Virus record (IMG/VR): IMGVR_UViG_3300050821_005814 | Location: 1 to 64,000 of that record | Origin: a virus | Direction: 5' to 3' (one strand) | Length of the DNA: 64,000 bases | Shown: positions 10,371-60,521 of the stretch, one piece after another | Layout: each line of letters starts with the position of its first letter | Position numbering within the stretch: the stretch's first letter is position 1 | The notes under the pieces: model-generated | What the model saw: only the letters and a program-made list of their open reading frames with translations | Told to the model about the DNA's origin: nothing | Database searches by the model: none | Translations under genes and position numbers: made by a program

Positions 10371-10382
10371 CATAATATACCC
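10371..10382 (-). promoter_or_regulatory. Putative phage promoter -10 motif GGGTATATTATG
   Basis: Member of the recurrent intergenic GGGTATAT(T)G family; ~35 nt upstream of the 10335 start. Confidence 0.5.
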
Positions 10383-41040: not shown

Positions 41041-43098
41041 CTACTTCACGGCGCGAACTGGCGGCTCACCTCGCCCATAGCGATGGTTGTCAAGCCATCC
41101 CTTGAGCGCTGCGACAGTCATCTGGCGAATAGTGCCGATGCGGTCTGATCCCCGACCATCAGAGAACGCTGCTTTGTATGCAGTCAGCGCTTGCTCGCGC
41201 GACGAGAAGCGCAGCATGCACTTGTGCTCATCGAACACACCGCTATCTGGGTTCAATTGCTCGATCACCCAACACTGCTCCTGCTTCTCGTCGTCGCCGA
41301 TGAAGCAATCCATTTGCTCGCGAGGACCTTCAGCCGATGATGTGCCACTAATATACCCATAATGCGCAGGCATCACTGTCGACCAGCCATACCCTTTGCG
41401 CGCCTCGCCTTTCGGCGTCTCGATGATGCATGTCAGCGGCCCGACATCGACCATGCTGAGCGCATCCATCTGCCGCGCGCGAATGATGTGGCGCAGGAGT
41501 AGCGCATTGCCTGACAACGGGATGCCTTGATCGTCTGTGTCGTCGGGTTTCTCGCTTTCAGCCTGCGGTCCCTCGAGCAGCGGTTCTGTGTTCTCACCAG
41601 CAGCGGGGGTCTGGGTGCTTTCAGGCATCGCGGGAGCAGCGCCGCTCATGCCTGGACCTCCCTGCATTGGCATCCCTGTCTGCGGATCGACCTCTGGCTG
41701 TCCAGGCAGAGGCGCTAATGCGTCGGCCTGTTCCGCCATGTCGAGATCTTCGTCCGTGATGTTGCTGCCAAACCCTGTGATGCGCGAGGACTGGCGAATC
41801 TCCATCATAGCGGTCTTCAGCGTGAAGACGCGATCCTGCAGTAGATTGCTCGTCGCACCTGCGATCGTGCCGGCGATCTGCGACTTCTCGAGCTCAGTCA
41901 ACTGCCATAGCGGCGCAAACTTGTAGTTGAACCCATCTGGCAGCGGTTCACCAAAATGCGACTGATGCGTGATGTGGAATAGGCGTGTGACAAACCGCCG
42001 CAAGCGCGCTTCCTGTTGGCTGCGCGTACCATCATAGTAATTGCGCAGGTCGCTATCGCCAGTCGAGTTCAGTCCTGCAGGCGACTGCGCGAACAAGCGC
42101 GTCATGGGAATGTCAGCGGCACCCGCGACCTGCTGCCCGAATTGCAGCATCATGTCGGACAGCCCAGCAAACGTGTATGACTGCGACTCAAAGTCGTCGG
42201 CTTTGTCAAGGACCGTCATGCCCTCAATCGACTGCATGACACGTATGAGCTGCATGAACTGCTTGACAGCATCCGCCATCTTGCCGCCAGCAGCGATGAT
42301 CTCCCGCAGGTTCTCAATCTTGAGTACGCGTAGGTGCGCTTTGTAGATGAGCTGCGCAGCGCCTTGCGTTGACGAGTCGAATGCGATCATGCGATCGAAC
42401 ACCGGCTCGATCACCGACGCACCCCAACCATTCTCAGTGATCAACTGCCAGTAGGGCAGCTCAATGCCATCCAAGCGTATGCAACGCGAATGGTGAATCT
42501 TCATATTGGGGATTGACCGCGCATCAGCGACCGTGTCATAGAACTTTGGCATACCAAAGTCAGGCCCGAAGTCAGTCACGGGGTTTTCGATATGCGGCCA
42601 TACCATCCAGCGATCGAGGACGAGTATTCCCTTGAACTGATTTTTGCTGACAGTCTCAACGCGCAAGGGGGTTGAGATGTCCTGCCCCTCAATCATGATG
42701 ACGCCAAGCGCACCGCCATACAGGCGCGACCACTTGAGCACACTATTGAGCCGCGACCAAATCTGCAAGTCGTTCCAATACTGGTTCAGCGAGTCAATGC
42801 GGTCGGGCGGCATGTCCGACTCAATGTTGACCCCTTCCCGCGTCATGTCGTCAGCGACTACGTCAACGACCTTGCGCACGAGCCATGCGCCACGATACAT
42901 CCACTCGAGTAGCGTATGGTTGCGGCTGAGCGGATTAAACCCATAGGTCGACGCGGACGAAAGGTTGTTCGTGCCATACCCAAGGTTAGCAGCAAAGTTC
43001 TGGAAGCTGTCTGCTGTACGCACACGCGCGATGGAGTCGCTCGTGTATGCCTGCACGCGCACGCGCGGCTTGATAGGTGCGATAGGCGCGTCACTCAC
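41041..43098 (-). CDS. Portal protein (DUF1073-like) fused to C-terminal inorganic-pyrophosphatase-like domain
   Basis: MYRGAWLVRKVVDVVADDMTREG, WSRLYGG, IHHSR, IPMTRLF.QSPAG..STG.SD.RNYYD; C-term IETPKG...HYGYI.GT...DCFIG...DEHKCML. Likely start GTG 43098 (GTGA overlap); track start 43164. Confidence 0.88.
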   Translation of the reverse strand: MSDAPIAPIKPRVRVQAYTSDSIARVRTADSFQNFAANLGYGTNNLSSASTYGFNPLSRNHTLLEWMYRGAWLVRKVVDVVADDMTREGVNIESDMPPDRIDSLNQYWNDLQIWSRLNSVLKWSRLYGGALGVIMIEGQDISTPLRVETVSKNQFKGILVLDRWMVWPHIENPVTDFGPDFGMPKFYDTVADARSIPNMKIHHSRCIRLDGIELPYWQLITENGWGASVIEPVFDRMIAFDSSTQGAAQLIYKAHLRVLKIENLREIIAAGGKMADAVKQFMQLIRVMQSIEGMTVLDKADDFESQSYTFAGLSDMMLQFGQQVAGAADIPMTRLFAQSPAGLNSTGDSDLRNYYDGTRSQQEARLRRFVTRLFHITHQSHFGEPLPDGFNYKFAPLWQLTELEKSQIAGTIAGATSNLLQDRVFTLKTAMMEIRQSSRITGFGSNITDEDLDMAEQADALAPLPGQPEVDPQTGMPMQGGPGMSGAAPAMPESTQTPAAGENTEPLLEGPQAESEKPDDTDDQGIPLSGNALLLRHIIRARQMDALSMVDVGPLTCIIETPKGEARKGYGWSTVMPAHYGYISGTSSAEGPREQMDCFIGDDEKQEQCWVIEQLNPDSGVFDEHKCMLRFSSREQALTAYKAAFSDGRGSDRIGTIRQMTVAALKGWLDNHRYGRGEPPVRAVK

Positions 43099-45652: not shown

Positions 45653-45795
45653 AACCGGTACCGGACATAGCTCATCCGCCGCCCCAGCCGATACTCATTC
45701 CATTGCTGATGCCAGAGCGCACTTGCTTCCTGCGATGTCGTGATGCAGATCTCCCACCTGCCATCGCGGAACATGTAGACTGTATAGCGTATCAT
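45649..45795 (-). CDS. Small hypothetical protein (48 aa)
   Basis: Not in track; ATG overlaps terL stop and TGA overlaps next ATG (ATGA at both ends). Confidence 0.45.
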   Translation of the reverse strand: MIRYTVYMFRDGRWEICITTSQEASALWHQQWNEYRLGRRMSYVRYRL

Positions 45796-47123
45796 CCTGC
45801 CAATTTCTCCCAAACGCCAAGACCACCACGCTTGGTAATATACCCGTCAAGCGAGTAACCGACCGCATCCCACCCATGGTTGTGCGCGTCGACTACTATC
45901 GGCAGTATCAGCGGCTGCTTTGTGACTGGATCAATACGCTTCTCGTCAGTCTTGTAGGAATAGAGCCTCGCCTCCTGCGCCATACCGACGCAGCGCTCGT
46001 GAATGTGAATCTTGCCAAAGCCCTTCAGGTGCGAGATGCGGTCTTCAACGCACCCCTGCCACTTGAGTGCAGCAGACATGTTGATGCCTTGCCGCAATAC
46101 ATAGCTGATCGTCTCCGGCCGCGCGTTGTCCGCCTTCACCGGCCAGTCAGTGATACCAGGAATGCCCTCGTACTGCATGCCGCTGATTGGTGCGCGGCCG
46201 CCCTTCAGCGCGTAGGGGATGTCTTCCAACTCAACGCCAACGCCGAAGAACTCATGCGTGATCCACAAGTCGTTGTTGTGGATGTAGCTGCGTATGCCGC
46301 ACAGCGGATCGTTCGCAAAGCCAAAGTCGACGCCGTAGAAGTACTTGTCGACGATCTCAGGTTCCTCGAACCCTTCGATCGCATAGCGGTCCTTGAAGAT
46401 AGCTGCTGACGAAATATGCCGGCACATACCCTCCCACACCCAGTCGTACGCGTCTGCGTCTGTCAGCATCATTTGCTTGCGCAGACGATTGAGCGACTCA
46501 GGGAACCATGGATTGTCCTGCCAGCCTACCTTCTCGACGAGTGCGTCTGTCGAATGACCTGTGACAAACGTCGCATACATGTAGTCGTCGGGATCAACGG
46601 CATTGAAGCTGATCCAAATCTCCGGGTTGATACCGCCACGCTCGCCTCTGATCGTTGGGTCGAGGAGCAGCATGGACTCGCGTGATGTCGTCTGCCCTTC
46701 CTCAATCCAGCAAATCGTCACACCTTCAAGCGATCGTATCTCAGCGATGTTACGCTTGAGTCCGCGGAAGATGAACTCACTACCCGTCAGCTTGCATCGT
46801 ATCGTGCGGTCGGTGATCTCGAAGAACGCTGCTAGTCCGAGTGCGCGTATCTGACCTGCAATGACACGATGCACGCTGTCAGCGATACTCGTCTGGAACT
46901 CACGCGTGCAGAGTATCAAATGTTTCTGCACCATCGCACGCCCAATTGCCGCACGTGCAAATGATCGGCTCTTAGCCCCGCCTCGACCGCCCCAGGCGAC
47001 CCGATATCTTACCGCCTCACCCGCGTCGGTCGTGCTCGCGGATAACAGCTTGCGAAAGCGCGGCGGGAAGCGGATGCGAAGAGGACCAGGACCTTCTGAA
47101 TCTGTGAGAGCGTCGAGAGGCAT
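45792..47123 (-). CDS. terL: Terminase large subunit (PBSX family)
   Basis: Walker A GGRGGAKS, CTREFQ.SI.DS, Walker B WIEEG, PTIR, DNPWFP, GVDFGF..DP, NHGWDA. Confidence 0.95.
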   Translation of the reverse strand: MPLDALTDSEGPGPLRIRFPPRFRKLLSASTTDAGEAVRYRVAWGGRGGAKSRSFARAAIGRAMVQKHLILCTREFQTSIADSVHRVIAGQIRALGLAAFFEITDRTIRCKLTGSEFIFRGLKRNIAEIRSLEGVTICWIEEGQTTSRESMLLLDPTIRGERGGINPEIWISFNAVDPDDYMYATFVTGHSTDALVEKVGWQDNPWFPESLNRLRKQMMLTDADAYDWVWEGMCRHISSAAIFKDRYAIEGFEEPEIVDKYFYGVDFGFANDPLCGIRSYIHNNDLWITHEFFGVGVELEDIPYALKGGRAPISGMQYEGIPGITDWPVKADNARPETISYVLRQGINMSAALKWQGCVEDRISHLKGFGKIHIHERCVGMAQEARLYSYKTDEKRIDPVTKQPLILPIVVDAHNHGWDAVGYSLDGYITKRGGLGVWEKLAG

Positions 47124-49209: not shown

Positions 49210-49223
49210 AGCATATACCCGAC
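49210..49223 (-). promoter_or_regulatory. Putative promoter motif GTCGGGTATATGCT
   Basis: Identical 14-mer at 54046-54059; upstream of the 49187 start. Confidence 0.5.
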
Positions 49224-49690: not shown

Positions 49691-49900
49691 TCACGCACAC
49701 TTCCAGGCAGCAAGACCTAGCCCAACGCCTTCATAGAAAGAGCTATCCAAGGCATGCACAAAGTCGTGCTTGATAAAGCAGTCGAAAACAACGTTGGCTG
49801 CTACCAGCGATCCCCACAAGATCAACATGTCAATGCGACGCTTGCGGCGCTGCTCACGCACAACGCGTGTGATGGTCTCGAGCAATTGCTCGCTAGTCAT
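49691..49900 (-). CDS. Small membrane protein
   Basis: Hydrophobic segments; ATGA overlap with terS stop. Confidence 0.4.
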   Translation of the reverse strand: MTSEQLLETITRVVREQRRKRRIDMLILWGSLVAANVVFDCFIKHDFVHALDSSFYEGVGLGLAAWKCA

Positions 49901-50469
49901 GTCTCTTCAAACTCACCATCGAGGATCTCACCCTGCGCCGGACCATTGAAGTCAAAGATCAGCGTAGGTGGCGGACGCAGATTACCATCTGGGTTGTTGA
50001 TGTCGACCTGACCGCGCTTCTTCCACGTATCCTTCTGACGGTTGGTCAGCCACAACTCAATAGCACCGACATCAGGCGGGTAATGCTCTATGTACGAGGC
50101 ACGCTTGATATCACCCGTCTTACTGTCGTACCAAAGCTTCTCCGCCGCATGCTCATACCCCTTGGCACGATGGTAGAGCGCATGCGCTACAACACCATCA
50201 GCGAGGTCACCACCTTCATTCCAACTACTCGCGAATTCTGCGATACTACTACGCCAGTCTTCTATCGTCTGCGGACTGACTTCAAAGATCTCACATATGC
50301 GCTGGTGGGATAAGCCGCACATGCGTAACTTGCGTACAAGATCCGCATACCCCTCGCGATACAATGTAGGGCGCCCCACAGGACGCTCCTTCATCTCGTA
50401 CTTGCGCTTGCGGCCGAAATGCCCCTTGGGGTACTTACCCGCCATGCGCGGCAGTGATTGACGCTTCAT
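49897..50469 (-). CDS. terS: Terminase small subunit
   Basis: GRPTLY, HTH (I.EIFEVS..TI..W), ADG.VAHALY.RAKGY, HYPPD..AI..WL.NRQ...W signature; start 50469 or 50445. Confidence 0.8.
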   Translation of the reverse strand: MKRQSLPRMAGKYPKGHFGRKRKYEMKERPVGRPTLYREGYADLVRKLRMCGLSHQRICEIFEVSPQTIEDWRSSIAEFASSWNEGGDLADGVVAHALYHRAKGYEHAAEKLWYDSKTGDIKRASYIEHYPPDVGAIELWLTNRQKDTWKKRGQVDINNPDGNLRPPPTLIFDFNGPAQGEILDGEFEET

Positions 50470-50491
50470 AGTCCATAGTCCCGCAAAGGCT

Positions 50492-50779
50492 TTAGGGTGC
50501 TGCCATCGCCGTTGGATGGTCGAGGAAGGAGAACACTGGCGTGATCTCAATGCGGAGCTGGTTGCTTGCCCCACCATCCCATGACGCTTGGCTGCCTGAT
50601 GCATCAACCTGCACTGGCATCATCGGCGGATATGCATCGAGTGCTGCCTCGATGATGTCAACGGCTTTCAGCATGATGGACTGTTCAGGTTCAGCCATCT
50701 TCATCGATGATGCTTGCCGCTTGATCTCCGCCATGACGAGTGGCGGCCGGCCGGTTACCTTGTAGAAGCTCCACGACAT
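50492..50779 (-). CDS. Hypothetical protein
   Basis: MSWSF...V.ASGS motif; GGGGAG RBS. Confidence 0.55.
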   Translation of the reverse strand: MSWSFYKVTGRPPLVMAEIKRQASSMKMAEPEQSIMLKAVDIIEAALDAYPPMMPVQVDASGSQASWDGGASNQLRIEITPVFSFLDHPTAMAAP

Positions 50780-51127: not shown

Positions 51128-51637
51128 CTATTGCACGAGCTCAACATTGGCTCGATCAAACATCAGCACGACCTCGCGCTGCATCCAACTCATGAGCAGC
51201 GCTACCCGTTGCTGATCGGTCCATGTGACGAACCCCTCGCGCAGCATACCAGTCTGATGATCGACTGCGAATGCTCCCTTTAGTATGCGTACCCTGCACC
51301 CCTCGAACAGAATAGGGCGCTCGGGATCGTCCATATTGGACATGGACTTGATCTCGTCGATCGCGCCAGGCGGCAGTGCGACGGGACAGTTCTCGCTGTG
51401 GGAGAACAACTGGCGTACGCCGCGCGTTGATACTATCTTCTTCCATGGATCGGACAGCAGGTCGAATGCAACAAAAGCGTACCGCGAGAACAATGGCTTA
51501 ATCGCTGGCGCCTTCTTACTCGTGTAGCGCCGCAGGTAGGTCGGGCAGAACGCCTCAAACCCCTGCTGCATCATATGCGCGACAGCTAGGAACTCGGATC
51601 TAGGCAGCGTGTATACGCAATACCATTCGATCGCCAT
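51128..51637 (-). CDS. nusG: NusG/RfaH-family transcription antiterminator
   Basis: WYCVYT.PRSE..A...M..QGFEAFCP, PLFSRYAFV, I.STRGV, KOW-like G.RVRI.KG.F. Confidence 0.85.
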   Translation of the reverse strand: MAIEWYCVYTLPRSEFLAVAHMMQQGFEAFCPTYLRRYTSKKAPAIKPLFSRYAFVAFDLLSDPWKKIVSTRGVRQLFSHSENCPVALPPGAIDEIKSMSNMDDPERPILFEGCRVRILKGAFAVDHQTGMLREGFVTWTDQQRVALLMSWMQREVVLMFDRANVELVQ

Positions 51638-51976
51638 GCAGCACTATCCCCCGTCCGACAGCTAAGTAGCTGCCGCAGACCACAGCGGTACGACCGACTG
51701 TAGCCCCGCCAAGCTGTGAACGGGGGAACCTTATAGCGACCATTTTGGTTTGGCTGCAACGCTTTGTTTTTGGTGCAGCATTTACTACGCCTGCATACTG
51801 CTAGTGCTAGTCTGACTATAGCTTGAAGTAGATCGCGACTAGCATCCAAAAGATAGCCATGAGAAAGCCTCCTTTGGCTACATCATAATAGCGGGTGAAA
51901 GTCGCGATGAAGCACCCGCTCAAGTAGAAGCTACCCCCCAGTATGAGGAAGGGAATGGATGGTGCAGACAGATCTA

Positions 51977-52540
51977 TCACGTCTGCGGACCGATGAAGTG
52001 CCCATCCTTCAACTCGCCGACCTTCTCATAGTCCATACCGTGAATCACATGGTAGGCGTAGCCATCGCTGTTGTGCGATAGTGCGAGATACTCGCCGCGC
52101 TCCTTACGCTCGAGCACGACCGTCAGGTGATTCTGCAGGTCGTCAGGCAGTGCGTTGCGCGCAAGCAACACGTCACCGACCTGATAGCTTGTGCCGGTCG
52201 TGTAACGTCGCGTCGCAGTCAGGAGGGGCTCAATGAGTACGCGCTGCCCCTTGATCATGACGGATGCAACAGGCGGTTGCTGCTTTGGACCTACGGCAGG
52301 GCGCGGCTTGATCTCGACGAGATCGAGGTACTCTTCAGTCAACCAGCAGCGAATGTCGCCGATCGAAGGGATTTGGAACAGTACGCTCCATGTGTTCGTC
52401 TGTGGGTCGAGACGCTCAAGCATACCTATCTCCTGGCGCTGCGCGAGCATGACCAAATGACGGTTCTGCTGCATGCCGCCAACGGGATTTGGCGGGACTT
52501 CCTTGATTGTGACGCGTGAACCTGCTCTGAAGTCAGACAT
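51977..52540 (-). CDS. Hypothetical protein
   Basis: Start ATG 52540 with AAGGAG RBS. Confidence 0.55.
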   Translation of the reverse strand: MSDFRAGSRVTIKEVPPNPVGGMQQNRHLVMLAQRQEIGMLERLDPQTNTWSVLFQIPSIGDIRCWLTEEYLDLVEIKPRPAVGPKQQPPVASVMIKGQRVLIEPLLTATRRYTTGTSYQVGDVLLARNALPDDLQNHLTVVLERKERGEYLALSHNSDGYAYHVIHGMDYEKVGELKDGHFIGPQT

Positions 52541-52770: not shown

Positions 52771-53320
52771 GATGTACCCGCCGCACAAGCGCTAGCGCGC
52801 CAAGCGCTAATGCTAGTATGAACGCACTGCGCGGTTCAGGCGTGCCAATTGAAGGCGGGAGAGGAGTACCCTCAACGCATTCGTGCAGCGCAGCATCCCA
52901 ATGATGAGCTGGTTGACACGGATGATCCTCGACAGGCGTTGTCTCAATGGCGACAATACCTGGCGTGATTATGCCGAACAGCGGGAATGCTGGTATGAAC
53001 GCGCCCCCTGGTAACTCCCCGCCGCCAAACCCGAAGGGTGCTTGCGGTACAGGGAATCCAAATGGCGGCCACCATGCTGCGTTGCCATTGTCTGCATTGG
53101 ACAAGGGAGGCGGCGCAGCCATACCTACTGGTGGGACAGGAGGTGTTGGGAACTGTGCTGTTGCTGGTGGTGGGCATGCAACAACGAGTGCCAGCACAAT
53201 GGTGGCTGGCAATGGTGGGGTTCCTGCATGCCATGCAGCAGCTCCCCATCTGGCGATCACTTCAGCTTTCGTATAGGCATGCTTGGCAACTAACACGATG
53301 CAATCACTGGCACTCGGCAT
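52763..53320 (-). CDS. PEP-CTERM sorting-domain protein, proline-rich
   Basis: C-term TPEPRSAFILALALGALALVRR = PEP motif, TM helix and basic tail; likely start ATG 53320 with GGAG RBS. Confidence 0.7.
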   Translation of the reverse strand: MPSASDCIVLVAKHAYTKAEVIARWGAAAWHAGTPPLPATIVLALVVACPPPATAQFPTPPVPPVGMAAPPPLSNADNGNAAWWPPFGFPVPQAPFGFGGGELPGGAFIPAFPLFGIITPGIVAIETTPVEDHPCQPAHHWDAALHECVEGTPLPPSIGTPEPRSAFILALALGALALVRRVHHG

Positions 53321-53345
53321 CTCCTGACACTCCATAGGCTCGCAT

Positions 53346-53357
53346 GCAATATACCCC
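53346..53357 (-). promoter_or_regulatory. Putative promoter motif GGGGTATATTGC
   Basis: Recurrent motif ~25 nt upstream of the PEP-CTERM gene start. Confidence 0.5.
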
Positions 53358-53469
53358 TGTCCCCACCAATACCAATACGCTGGCGACGGGGCGCTTGCCC
53401 CGTCGCATGTTCCGAAGCGTATACGCAAGCGAAGCGCAGCGTATACGCGAAAGGAACATCGTCATGCAT

Positions 53470-54045
53470 GCGTGTGCTAGTAGTAGGTCTAGCGGCCTAG
53501 ACATGGTACCCCCTACATCCAGTCTCGGTAGCCAAACCGACCCCCATTGTCACTGCGCTGCGCTTCGCTCCGCTTGTTCGTGGGGACCTGCACGACCTTG
53601 CAGGTCGTGCGTCCAGTCATTGGTTGTCTAAGCATGAGTTGCGGTAGCTGAAGGGATCGTTCAAACGATTCCAAAGCTATCAGGACACACGTACCCCATG
53701 CCGGAGTACGTAGTATCCCGCAGGACAGTAGTGCCAAGCCCCTCCTTGTGCAGGTCAGCGGTCTCACAAGTCGATACATCTCCCCGCGGTTTCTGCCGCG
53801 TTGCAAGTGGGAGGGAGTCCGGTGGGAGCAGTACGTATCTGACGGCGCAAGAACAACCGGACACTACCCGCCTGTCCTTGCTCTGGGTTGCTTTCTCTCA
53901 GAGCCCAGATCACTGAGGCATAGTCAAAGCCTCCATTCAGCTAATGTGCTCTAGGACAGTCGAGGCACCCAGTCCTGTATTCTGGATCGACCCCGCTAGC
54001 GATATGGTCCTGAGGCGGCAGCGCCGCTCGCATACATCAGCCCTT
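53470..54045 (-). ncRNA. Candidate large structured non-coding RNA (unknown family)
   Basis: No convincing ORF; many nested hairpins; promoter-like motif at 54046-54059 points into it. Confidence 0.35.
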
Positions 54046-54274
54046 AGCATATACCCGACATTGCATTCATATTGCCAGTTGGTAGCGGTGCATTGGCGTT
54101 AAGCGCTTGATCTCATTGCAATCACGCCTGTCAGAATTATCTGACTTGCGCACAACCGCCTGCATTGACTATGTACTGGACTGTTTGAAACAGGGAAAGG
54201 GCATACTGCACGATGCTATGCGCGCCAGGTATAGTAAGAAGCGTAGCTAGCACCCCGTGCGGATCCATAGGACC

Positions 54275-54766
54275 ATGGCAGAGAAGGCGACTCTCGATGA
54301 ACTGATAGCGGCGCTGTCTCAGCGCGACGCGCTCAGGATCCATAAGCAGCTCCTTCATCGATTCGATGCCAAGCAAGGCAAGGTCGCCCCATTCACATCA
54401 CAGGAAGACGACTTCTACACGGCCCTGCACCGCGTGATGAATGGGCGGTTGTTGCCAAAGCTTGAGCTCGCGACGCACAAGAAAATCCATGGGCGGAACG
54501 GTTACAAGCGTGCGGCTACGCAGCTATTCACGACGTTGAAGAATGGTAGTGACGGTACGCTGCGGCGGCCGCAAATGCTGGCGCTTGCCTACGAGGCGCT
54601 TAGCTGTCTTGCGGAGGCGATGGAGGAATGGGGCATCCCTGTCTCCGCCGCCAACTTGATTATGCAGATCGACAACAACCTTGAGCATGCCCTTAACGAA
54701 GCGTACCCGGGGTATCTCGAGAACCGCATGTTGCACTACCTAGCTCCGATGCTCGAGGCTGCATAG
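54275..54766 (+). CDS. Hypothetical protein (first gene of plus arm)
   Basis: ATG 54275 with AGGA RBS; C-term YPGYLE..ML. Confidence 0.6.
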   Translation: MAEKATLDELIAALSQRDALRIHKQLLHRFDAKQGKVAPFTSQEDDFYTALHRVMNGRLLPKLELATHKKIHGRNGYKRAATQLFTTLKNGSDGTLRRPQMLALAYEALSCLAEAMEEWGIPVSAANLIMQIDNNLEHALNEAYPGYLENRMLHYLAPMLEAA

Positions 54767-55094
54767 GGTATATTGGCTATTGTCTGCGCTGGTGGGAAAT
54801 GAGTGGTGTGCTGATGAACCCTCCCGCCAGCACGGATCGGATCGCTGTGCCCCCCAAAGGCAGTGATCCGTGGCGGCTCTTGTGCTTCCGTGAGAGTCGC
54901 TAAGGAGAAGGGTGCGTAGGGCCGCAACAGCCCGACTGTACGCTACGCACCCTTCACTCCCTCTAGCAGTTGGTAGTGCAGTGCCCGGTCCAGATCCCCT
55001 TAGCTTAACACGCCGCAATACAGTCATGGGACTCGCACTATGCGGGTTCGGCAATCCGCGCGCTGACTGCAATGCGTATGCAGGAGACTACAGT

Positions 55095-56230: not shown

Positions 56231-57238
56231 ATGCCCTACGATTGGCGCTCTCTGCTGGACCAAGCGCGCATCCCCTGGCGCGTGAAAGGTCCCAACACAT
56301 CCAAAGGGAATGTGTCAATCGAGTGCCCATTTTGCGGCGACGATCCAAGCTTTCATTTCCAGCTTAGCGAAACGTTTGATGGCTACCGTTGCCTACGCGA
56401 CAGCAGGCACAACGGCTCGCATATGGTGCGCCTACTGGTCGCCTTAGGATATAGCCGCACCGAAGCGCAAGTACTCCTGCATGAGCATAAGCTGGACAAG
56501 AAGCCGCTCCCGCCAAAGCCGCGCGCCATTGAAGACCTGACCGACATCTGGCAGCGCTTCCCGCCAGCCGAAGACGCACCGCATAGCATGCGCTACCTGA
56601 AAGGGCGCGGCTTCACTAATCCCATGCAGACAGCTATTGACTACGATTTGCGCTATGCCAGGGCGGGCGATTGGGCGCAGCGTGTGCTCATACCATTTGC
56701 AGTTGATGGGATAGTCGTCAGTTGGGCTGGGCGCGCGACTACGAGTTACCTACGTCCTCGCTATCGTATGTATGATCCAAGTCCTCCTGGATTGATCTAT
56801 GTGCCGCGCGTCATCACGACTGAACAGACCGTTGTGATCGTCGAAGGGCAATTCGATGCACTCAAGATCGCAGTTGCAACAGAACGCGATTCCGTCGGTG
56901 TGATCGGCCTGAGCGGTAAGAACCTTGACAGCGCAGACCGTCTATTGCGCCTAGCACATGTGCTCGGCAAAAGCAGAAGGCTAATCTTGCTTGCGCTTGA
57001 TCCTGATGTCTCTGTTGGCGTTGCCAGCCATTCTATTATGCTGGTTGCGCAAGCATTGCGCTGGTGCTATGTTGCGCGCCTTCATGTGCCCGTCGGTCAG
57101 GAAGATCCAGGGGCAATGTCTTTGGGGGACGCGCAGAAGTGGATCCAAAACGCAATACGCGCAAACGCGCGAGTCTTTATGTCGGGCCGCAGTGGTCAGG
57201 CACATTCGAGGAATACGCCCGCAAGTACGCGCGCATAA
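56231..57238 (+). CDS. DNA primase (Zn-finger + Toprim)
   Basis: CPFC..D...H, YRC; YLKGRG; RVLIP....V.W.GR; Toprim VEGQFDA, LALDPD, EDPG. Confidence 0.85.
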   Translation: MPYDWRSLLDQARIPWRVKGPNTSKGNVSIECPFCGDDPSFHFQLSETFDGYRCLRDSRHNGSHMVRLLVALGYSRTEAQVLLHEHKLDKKPLPPKPRAIEDLTDIWQRFPPAEDAPHSMRYLKGRGFTNPMQTAIDYDLRYARAGDWAQRVLIPFAVDGIVVSWAGRATTSYLRPRYRMYDPSPPGLIYVPRVITTEQTVVIVEGQFDALKIAVATERDSVGVIGLSGKNLDSADRLLRLAHVLGKSRRLILLALDPDVSVGVASHSIMLVAQALRWCYVARLHVPVGQEDPGAMSLGDAQKWIQNAIRANARVFMSGRSGQAHSRNTPASTRA

Positions 57239-57730: not shown

Positions 57731-57740
57731 GGGTATAATG
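57731..57740 (+). promoter_or_regulatory. Putative promoter motif GGGTATAATG
   Basis: Consensus TATAAT within the motif family; upstream of AGGAGG RBS and 57765 start. Confidence 0.55.
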
Positions 57741-60510: not shown

Positions 60511-60521
60511 GGGTATATTGC
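60511..60521 (+). promoter_or_regulatory. Putative promoter motif GGGTATATTGC
   Basis: Recurrent motif after terminator and upstream of folE. Confidence 0.55.

Follow-up and report, generated by a model that had tools for sequence, protein, structure and literature searches.

The locus raises the question of what lies between the two divergent arms of a phage genome, where the original prediction had placed a candidate large, highly structured non-coding RNA (53470-54045), citing GOLLD and ROOL as large ornate RNAs of phages. The window, which is the whole 64,000-nt stretch of DNA analyzed here, comprises bases 1-64000 of a 106,805-bp IMG/VR virus record that is classed as linear and estimated to be 100% complete. 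A gene-free tract of 954 nt is flanked by the late/structural arm on the minus strand and the replication arm on the plus strand, and a codon log-odds model shows it to be the largest ORF-free tract of the genome. The features of the locus are listed in Table 1.

Judged by its sequence, the phage is without close or cultured relatives. Its portal is ~51% identical to proteobacterial phage portals, and its large terminase is at most 51% identical to IMG/VR relatives and at most 52% identical to relatives in GTDB genomes (185,579 species genomes). Among these genomes, the large terminase finds its nearest relatives (50-52%) in prophage regions of Bryobacteraceae/Acidobacteriota MAGs. The terminase relatives hint at Acidobacteriota as the host phylum, in agreement with the closest RfaH-like sequences, which come from soil. 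No family evidence for a virion RNA polymerase is found among the giant ORFs.

Table 1. Coordinates of the arms, genes, promoter motifs, hairpins, and folded segments at the locus (z, folding energy relative to shuffles).
Feature	Coordinates	Strand	Description
Leftward arm	53320 down to base 1	-	Late/structural genes
First leftward ORF	ATG at 53320	-	GGAG ahead of ATG
RfaH-like NusG paralogue gene	51128-51637	-	Leftward arm
Small terminase	49897-50607		Leftward arm
Large terminase	45792-47123	-	Leftward arm
Portal, protease, major head protein, tape measure protein			Leftward arm
Gene-free tract	53321-54274		Between the divergent arms
Rightward arm	From 54275	+	Orphan ORF, primase, QueC-like genes
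First rightward ORF	ATG at 54275	+	
Primase	56231-57238		Rightward arm, 2 kb from the tract
GGGTATAT(T/G) minus sites	10375-10382, 41351-41358, 45838-45845, 49213-49220, 53349-53356, 54049-54056	-	
GGGTATAT(T/G) plus sites in the window	54766-54773, 60511-60518	+	
First promoter motif	54046-54061	-	Core GGGTATAT from 54056 to 54049; points leftward into the tract; putative start ~54041
Second promoter motif	53347-53375	-	GGGTATATTG from 53356 to 53347; directly after H1, 26 nt before the ATG at 53320
Weaker motif variant AGGTATAGT	54227-54235	+	In the 54057-54274 spacer
Spacer	54057-54274		Separates the leftward promoter from the first rightward gene; imperfect palindrome at 54089-54120
Possible 30-aa small ORF	53941-54033	-	AAGGG 7 nt before ATG, directly 3' of the 54056 promoter; unproven, poor codon score, no family match
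5' two-thirds (~330 nt) of putative transcript	53712-54040	-	Structure at chance level, z about -1 to +1
H5	53689-53711		ACGTAC/GTACGT; 9 pairs on the minus strand
H4	53645-53679		TAGCT/AGCTA around GGGATCGTT/AACGATTCC; a single G-U pair on plus becomes a C-A mismatch on minus
H3	53584-53614		Perfect 9-bp stem GCACGACCT/AGGTCGTGC, 3-nt loop, outer GGAC/GTCC
Pentamer run (AGCGN)x5	53550-53574	-	Core 53556-53569
H2	53407-53459		ATGTTCC/GGAACAT around two GCGTATACGC palindromes
H1	53383-53406		10-bp perfect GC-rich stem, 4-nt loop; adjoins the -35 region of the second promoter
Segment with H1 and H2	53375-53465		z -6.8 plus, -6.4 minus
Segment	53580-53715		z -3.98 plus, -3.40 minus
Segment, long-range AGGACAG/CTGTCCT domain	53718-53882		z -0.83 plus, -0.57 minus
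Segment	53880-54025		z +0.59 plus, +0.10 minus

Coding potential of the tract

The codon log-odds model, for which 38 long ORFs from the same genome served as the training set, gives no positive frame at ~53360-54260, where all frames are negative, and the flanking genes score clearly. TAA, TAG, and TGA occur in every frame of the tract, except that one minus frame has no TAA. No frame has a single type of stop codon, so recoding cannot rescue an ORF, and the mixed stop types in all frames rule out recoded stop codons or an alternative genetic code. None of ten candidate small ORFs has a significant match in Pfam and PHROG (E<=1), with a single PHROG listed at E 0.1. No tRNA or tmRNA gene is found, nor is there a decayed copy of any phage ORF in the tract, and these candidates are rejected. 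The codon model, the Pfam and PHROG searches, and the distribution of stop codons agree that the tract is non-coding, which bears out the earlier description of about 570 nt without a credible ORF and extends it to 954 nt.

Outside the window, the second-largest ORF-free tract of the genome (89217-90088, 872 nt) heads a block of small genes with hairpin cassettes, and it may be another control region. At genome positions 90,440-98,300, an intergenic cassette is repeated between nearly all pairs of small plus-strand genes, in at least 14 copies, in which a stop codon is followed in turn by a hairpin of 9-13 bp belonging to the GATGCAGCG.../GAAGCAGC... family, a second, small hairpin with CCTGCGCTAGTGCAGG or CCTGGG..., the ribosome site GGGAGAA, and the next start codon. 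The cassette could be a processing, terminator, or promoter element of the early gene block.

A promoter motif that points into the tract

The motif GGGTATAT occurs nine times in the genome, with eight copies in the window compared to 0.43 expected (~19-fold). Eight copies are reached by none of 100 shuffles, and no shuffle has more than two. All nine copies are co-oriented with the local genes, and about five of the nine sites are ~25-40 nt ahead of a start codon, a spacing that supports promoter function. One-mismatch variants at 57731 and 59674 on the plus strand likewise precede start codons. The results suggest that GGGTATAT(T/G) marks a class of phage promoters that lack a clear -35 element, and the motif offers a first map of transcription in this 107-kb phage, which has no cultured relative. 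Sigma-70 promoters and intrinsic terminators of the canonical type are not enriched in 44-64 kb.

The enrichment (eight copies versus 0.43) upholds the promoter-like motif that had been noticed at 54046-54059, aimed into the tract on the minus strand. The site at 54056 forms a subclass of three with those at 49220 (minus strand) and 83804 (plus strand), and the 16-17-nt consensus of this subclass is A(T/C)GTCGGGTATA(T/A)GCT. Downstream of the 54056 promoter there is no credible gene for 700 nt, just the 30-aa ORF, and a non-coding minus-strand transcript is plausible.

Folding energy of the tract

The original prediction had proposed a comparison of the folding energy with shuffled sequence and a search against Rfam. 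The MFE of 53470-54045 is -223.4 on the plus strand (z -3.06 versus dinucleotide shuffles) and -227.6 on the minus strand (z -2.09), but the interval stands only at the 15th (plus) and 27th (minus) percentile among 576-nt windows of the same genome. Natural windows of this genome mostly fold better than their own shuffles, and relative to 244 genome windows of 576 nt, GC-regressed, the interval lies at -0.9 sd on the plus strand and -0.6 sd on the minus strand. Against the genome's own windows, the fold of 53470-54045 is ordinary.

In a 120-nt scan, z is -5 to -6.5 at 53350-53500, mostly outside the predicted interval, then -4.7 to -5.2 on the plus strand and about -2.6 to -3.1 on the minus strand at 53590-53740, and between about -2.5 and +1 at 53740-54045. 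The baseline of the scan (273 windows, mean z -0.28, sd 1.14) contains no window with z < -4.7 on the plus strand and one on the minus strand. The first 76 kb are covered by 5,093 GC-corrected 120-nt windows, of which the one at 53371 ranks first on the plus strand and fourth on the minus strand, and the one at 53581 fourth on the plus strand. When 56-nt windows are ordered by raw energy, the hairpins of the tract come only ~25th on the minus strand and fall below the top 25 on the plus strand. For the minus strand of 53375-54042, which runs from the putative start to H1 and was picked after the hairpins had been seen, the MFE is -290.3 and z is -5.85 (20 shuffles). With GC correction, 1 of 227 genome windows on the minus strand and 4 of 227 on the plus strand are more stable than this post hoc interval.

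The stems named in the original prediction are all present in the sequence, but two-thirds of the interval 53470-54045 folds no better than shuffled sequence, and the multi-stem domain enclosed by the long-range AGGACAG/CTGTCCT pairing is at chance level. Structure beyond chance is limited to ~330 nt, in five simple hairpins at 53383-53711 (H1-H5), and H1 and H2 lie to the left of 53470.

Anatomy of the hairpin cluster

Two perfect hairpins of at least 9 bp occur in 830 nt, where ~0.02 are expected. The palindrome GCGTATACGC has exactly two copies in the genome, both in H2 and 22 bp apart, at ~80 and 100 bp upstream of the putative start of the 53356 promoter. The loop of H2 (53428-53441) and the core of the pentamer run are perfect inverted repeats of each other over 14 nt, and both are AGCGN runs. 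The hairpin pairs are nearly all Watson-Crick, which makes the stability nearly equal on both strands, and the hints as to the strand conflict, with H4 better on the plus strand and H5 better on the minus strand. An evolved RNA fold would explain such Watson-Crick, strand-symmetric hairpins no better than would DNA palindromes or hairpins of the terminator type. The loops are TGC/GCA, CAAA/UUUG, GCTT/AAGC, and a 6-nt CAGAAA; minus-strand loops with GCAA or GAAA had been pointed out, and none of the hairpin loops is a canonical GNRA tetraloop.

None of H1-H5 is called as an intrinsic terminator (GC hairpin and U-tract) by the scan, and no U-run flanks them on either strand. The only clear canonical intrinsic terminator seen lies outside the window at genome positions 65348-65375 on the plus strand, where a 12-bp stem is followed by ATTTTTAT. 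This terminator indicates that the phage is able to use U-tract terminators, which are absent from the hairpins of the tract.

Searches for RNA families and homologs

Rfam 15 gives no hits for the whole window at gathering thresholds and none for 53200-54400 at E<=10 with lax filters, and the absent covariance-model match rules out GOLLD, ROOL, or another curated Rfam family. With ~330 nt in five simple hairpins and no Rfam match, the large, highly structured RNA of the original prediction is not supported; its interpretation finds only partial support, in the non-coding tract and in the promoter motif aimed into it on the minus strand.

The search for homologs gives a similar picture. blastn of the tract against 50,697 phage records and a search for the exact H3 hairpin in IMG/VR return nothing, the two flanking ORFs have no relatives in IMG/VR, and ORF163 matches itself only among 5.8 billion proteins. 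The RfaH-like alignment reaches at best 41% identity in JGI metagenomes, with no tract homolog, and the primase search yields only a non-syntenic contig that is 26% identical. In 216 loci obtained as terminase, primase, or RfaH-like relatives in IMG/VR, JGI metagenomes, and GTDB genomes, neither blastn nor nhmmer detects a homolog of the tract. Among the fetched relatives, the order RfaH-like-TerS-TerL occurs in just three truncated contigs, none of which reaches an equivalent tract. The tandem GCGTATACGC pattern is found in intergenic DNA of three unrelated phages, as an analogy only.

Alternative readings of the tract

The tract could act at the level of DNA, either through palindromes that are protein-binding sites (operators or activator sites of the divergent promoters) or as a replication origin where the arms diverge, a reading that we consider possible but doubtful. 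Near-perfect, strand-symmetric Watson-Crick palindromes are consistent with it, as are the two GCGTATACGC copies, which are two helical turns apart upstream of the 53356 promoter and resemble tandem sites in unrelated phages; H1, however, is more RNA-hairpin-like than operator-like with its GC stem and 4-nt loop. The position of this largest non-coding stretch also suits an origin, with the primase gene nearby and the cumulative GC-skew minimum of the whole genome at 54431, but the change in gene orientation confounds the skew. Iterons are ruled out, as no repeat family of at least three copies is found in the tract, and so are DnaA boxes, none of which occurs there. An AT-rich unwinding element is not found either, the lowest GC content in 60-nt windows being 45%. 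Transcription of the tract into a stand-alone minus-strand ncRNA of ~670 nt, from the 54056 promoter to H1, with a structured 3' third and a role in trans such as antisense to an early mRNA, is unlikely. The promoter without a credible ORF behind it argues for such an RNA, strong 3' hairpins could set and stabilize its end, and the fold of the post hoc interval 53375-54042 places it among the top 1% of minus-strand genome windows. In addition, 53630-53646 is a 17-nt perfect direct match to genome positions 91811-91827 (blastn-short E about 0.005-0.015; post hoc), which are internal to a plus-strand ORF of 79 aa in the rightward arm and form the 3' arm of a 9-bp hairpin there. The mRNA of this ORF would be complementary to a minus-sense RNA of the tract. 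This match is a single post hoc observation, however, and the RNA would have no Rfam match, no homolog in any of the collections searched and hence no covariation, and a 5' portion of 330 nt with chance-level structure; known large ornate RNAs, moreover, are not built of simple perfect hairpins. We regard it as quite unlikely that the tract specifies a new ~670-nt phage ncRNA that ends in tandem hairpins and acts in trans, for example by the 17-nt pairing with the 91811-91827 mRNA, or serves as a recruitment platform for the RfaH-like factor.

There are two further readings. Small protein genes may have been missed, for example the 30-aa ORF (54033-53941) or a 97-aa ORF (53806-53513), which would make the hairpins 3' UTR or intergenic elements. 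The order of promoter, AAGGG, and ATG at the 30-aa ORF does resemble the layout at 49220, where a sister promoter stands ahead of a 59-aa ORF, and small genes are abundant in the same part of the phage, but the negative log-odds in all frames, the ten candidates without a significant family match, and the absence of any paralogue in the phage make this very improbable, and such ORFs would span just a small share of the 954 nt. It is also highly unlikely that the tract is a spacer with no specific function beyond its promoters, in which hairpins arose incidentally in a GC-rich, structure-rich genome. The ordinary fold of 53470-54045 and the low raw-energy rank of the hairpins fit a spacer, whereas the composition-corrected clusters that rank first and fourth, the excess of perfect hairpins, the 14-nt inverted repeat, and the unique tandem palindrome do not.

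A candidate leader of the late arm and an RfaH-like factor

We tentatively read the tract as the region that controls the leftward (late/structural) arm and as the untranslated leader of that arm, a reading to which we give somewhat less than an even chance. It is drawn from the combination of a non-coding tract, an enriched promoter motif, top-ranked hairpin clusters, and an RfaH-like gene on the same arm. The RfaH-like protein matches Pfam NusG (2e-12), the antiterminator family phrog_6386, and TIGR01955 RfaH (1.4e-20, below the NCBIfam curated, equivalog, cut-off). Its gene lies 1.7 kb down the leftward arm from the first ORF and is followed by more than 50 kb of co-oriented genes, and it provides the operon with the NusG paralogue that an RfaH-type leader calls for. 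Specialized NusG paralogues act on long 5' leaders with a recruitment element and terminators (PMC12691694, PMC7819879), which supports the leader reading. LoaP overcomes a terminator in the leader and requires a hairpin there (PMC12691694), UpxY prevents transcription from terminating in the leader that precedes its own gene (PMC7819879), and RfaH is recruited at ops sites within leaders (PMC7819879). A second structured non-coding stretch of 340 nt lies just upstream of the RfaH-like gene (51630-51985, minus strand; z -2.94), and its structure ranks second among GC-corrected 120-nt minus-strand windows; this stretch also supports the leader reading.

On the minus strand, the 54056 promoter is followed by ~330 nt of plain sequence, H5-H3 (53711-53584), the pentamer run, H2-H1 (53459-53383), the 53356 promoter, and the ORF at 53320. 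RNA polymerase starting from 54056 would make a ~670-nt transcript, which the hairpins would stop, pause, or process, acting as an attenuator or insulator before the late genes, and read-through into the late arm would depend on the RfaH-like factor. The second promoter would provide basal expression of the first genes, including that of the RfaH-like factor, and the two GCGTATACGC palindromes may also, or instead, bind a regulator of this promoter.

The leader reading is weakened by several observations. H1 and H2 have no U-tract on either strand, although the genome has the canonical terminator at 65348-65375. An E. coli-type ops element (GGCGGTAGnnTG, sense orientation) is dismissed, as the tract has no match at one mismatch or fewer, and two-mismatch matches are common throughout (98 in the window versus 63 expected). 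The near-perfect palindromes are strand-symmetric with conflicting strand hints, the 53375-54042 interval was chosen with the hairpins in view, and the RfaH-like protein scores under the NCBIfam curated cut-off. Furthermore, the late genes have a second promoter directly behind the hairpins and do not need the upstream one for their expression.

Most probably, the tract is one of the familiar regions by which phages control transcription, and the phage itself has no known relatives. As one orphan sequence, it is worth pursuing as a lead and is not a discovery. If the leader or attenuator reading is true, the phage would govern its late genes with an RfaH-like factor of its own, acting on a long structured leader. 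RfaH-like leader control is well studied in bacterial capsule, polyketide, and conjugation operons, and a brief literature search found no phage example of such late control on a structured leader.

Comparison with known systems

The tract shares with GOLLD (RF01998) and ROOL (RF03087) a phage context, a length of several hundred nucleotides, and the lack of an ORF. It differs from them in having no covariance-model match (E<=10) and no homologs found, and its structure consists of five simple hairpins, with a multi-stem core at chance level. Origins of phages and plasmids can occur at divergent junctions, and some have origin transcripts, such as ColE1 RNA II and those of the T4 and T7 origin promoters. 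Like these origins, the tract is non-coding, lies beside replication genes at the cumulative GC-skew minimum, and carries a putative promoter for an untranslated RNA, but it is without iterons, DnaA boxes, and an AT-rich unwinding element.

In the late control of phage lambda, the PR' promoter gives a short 6S transcript (194 nt) that ends at the tR' terminator unless Q brings about antitermination. The arrangement proposed for the tract is similar in that a promoter upstream of the late genes would give short non-coding transcripts, stopped at a hairpin in the absence of antitermination. It differs in the length of the transcript (~670 nt versus 194 nt), in an antiterminator that is NusG-like and not Q-like and whose gene lies downstream of the hairpins, and in the absence of a canonical terminator.

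Compared to the leaders controlled by RfaH, UpxY, and LoaP, the tract has a second promoter between the putative leader and the first gene. It has no ops element at one mismatch or fewer and no UNCG hairpin, its hairpins have no U-tracts, and the phage paralogue is below the RfaH equivalog cut-off. As in these systems, however, a long, probably untranslated leader with hairpins precedes a very long co-oriented operon, and the paralogue is encoded in or beside the operon that it would target.
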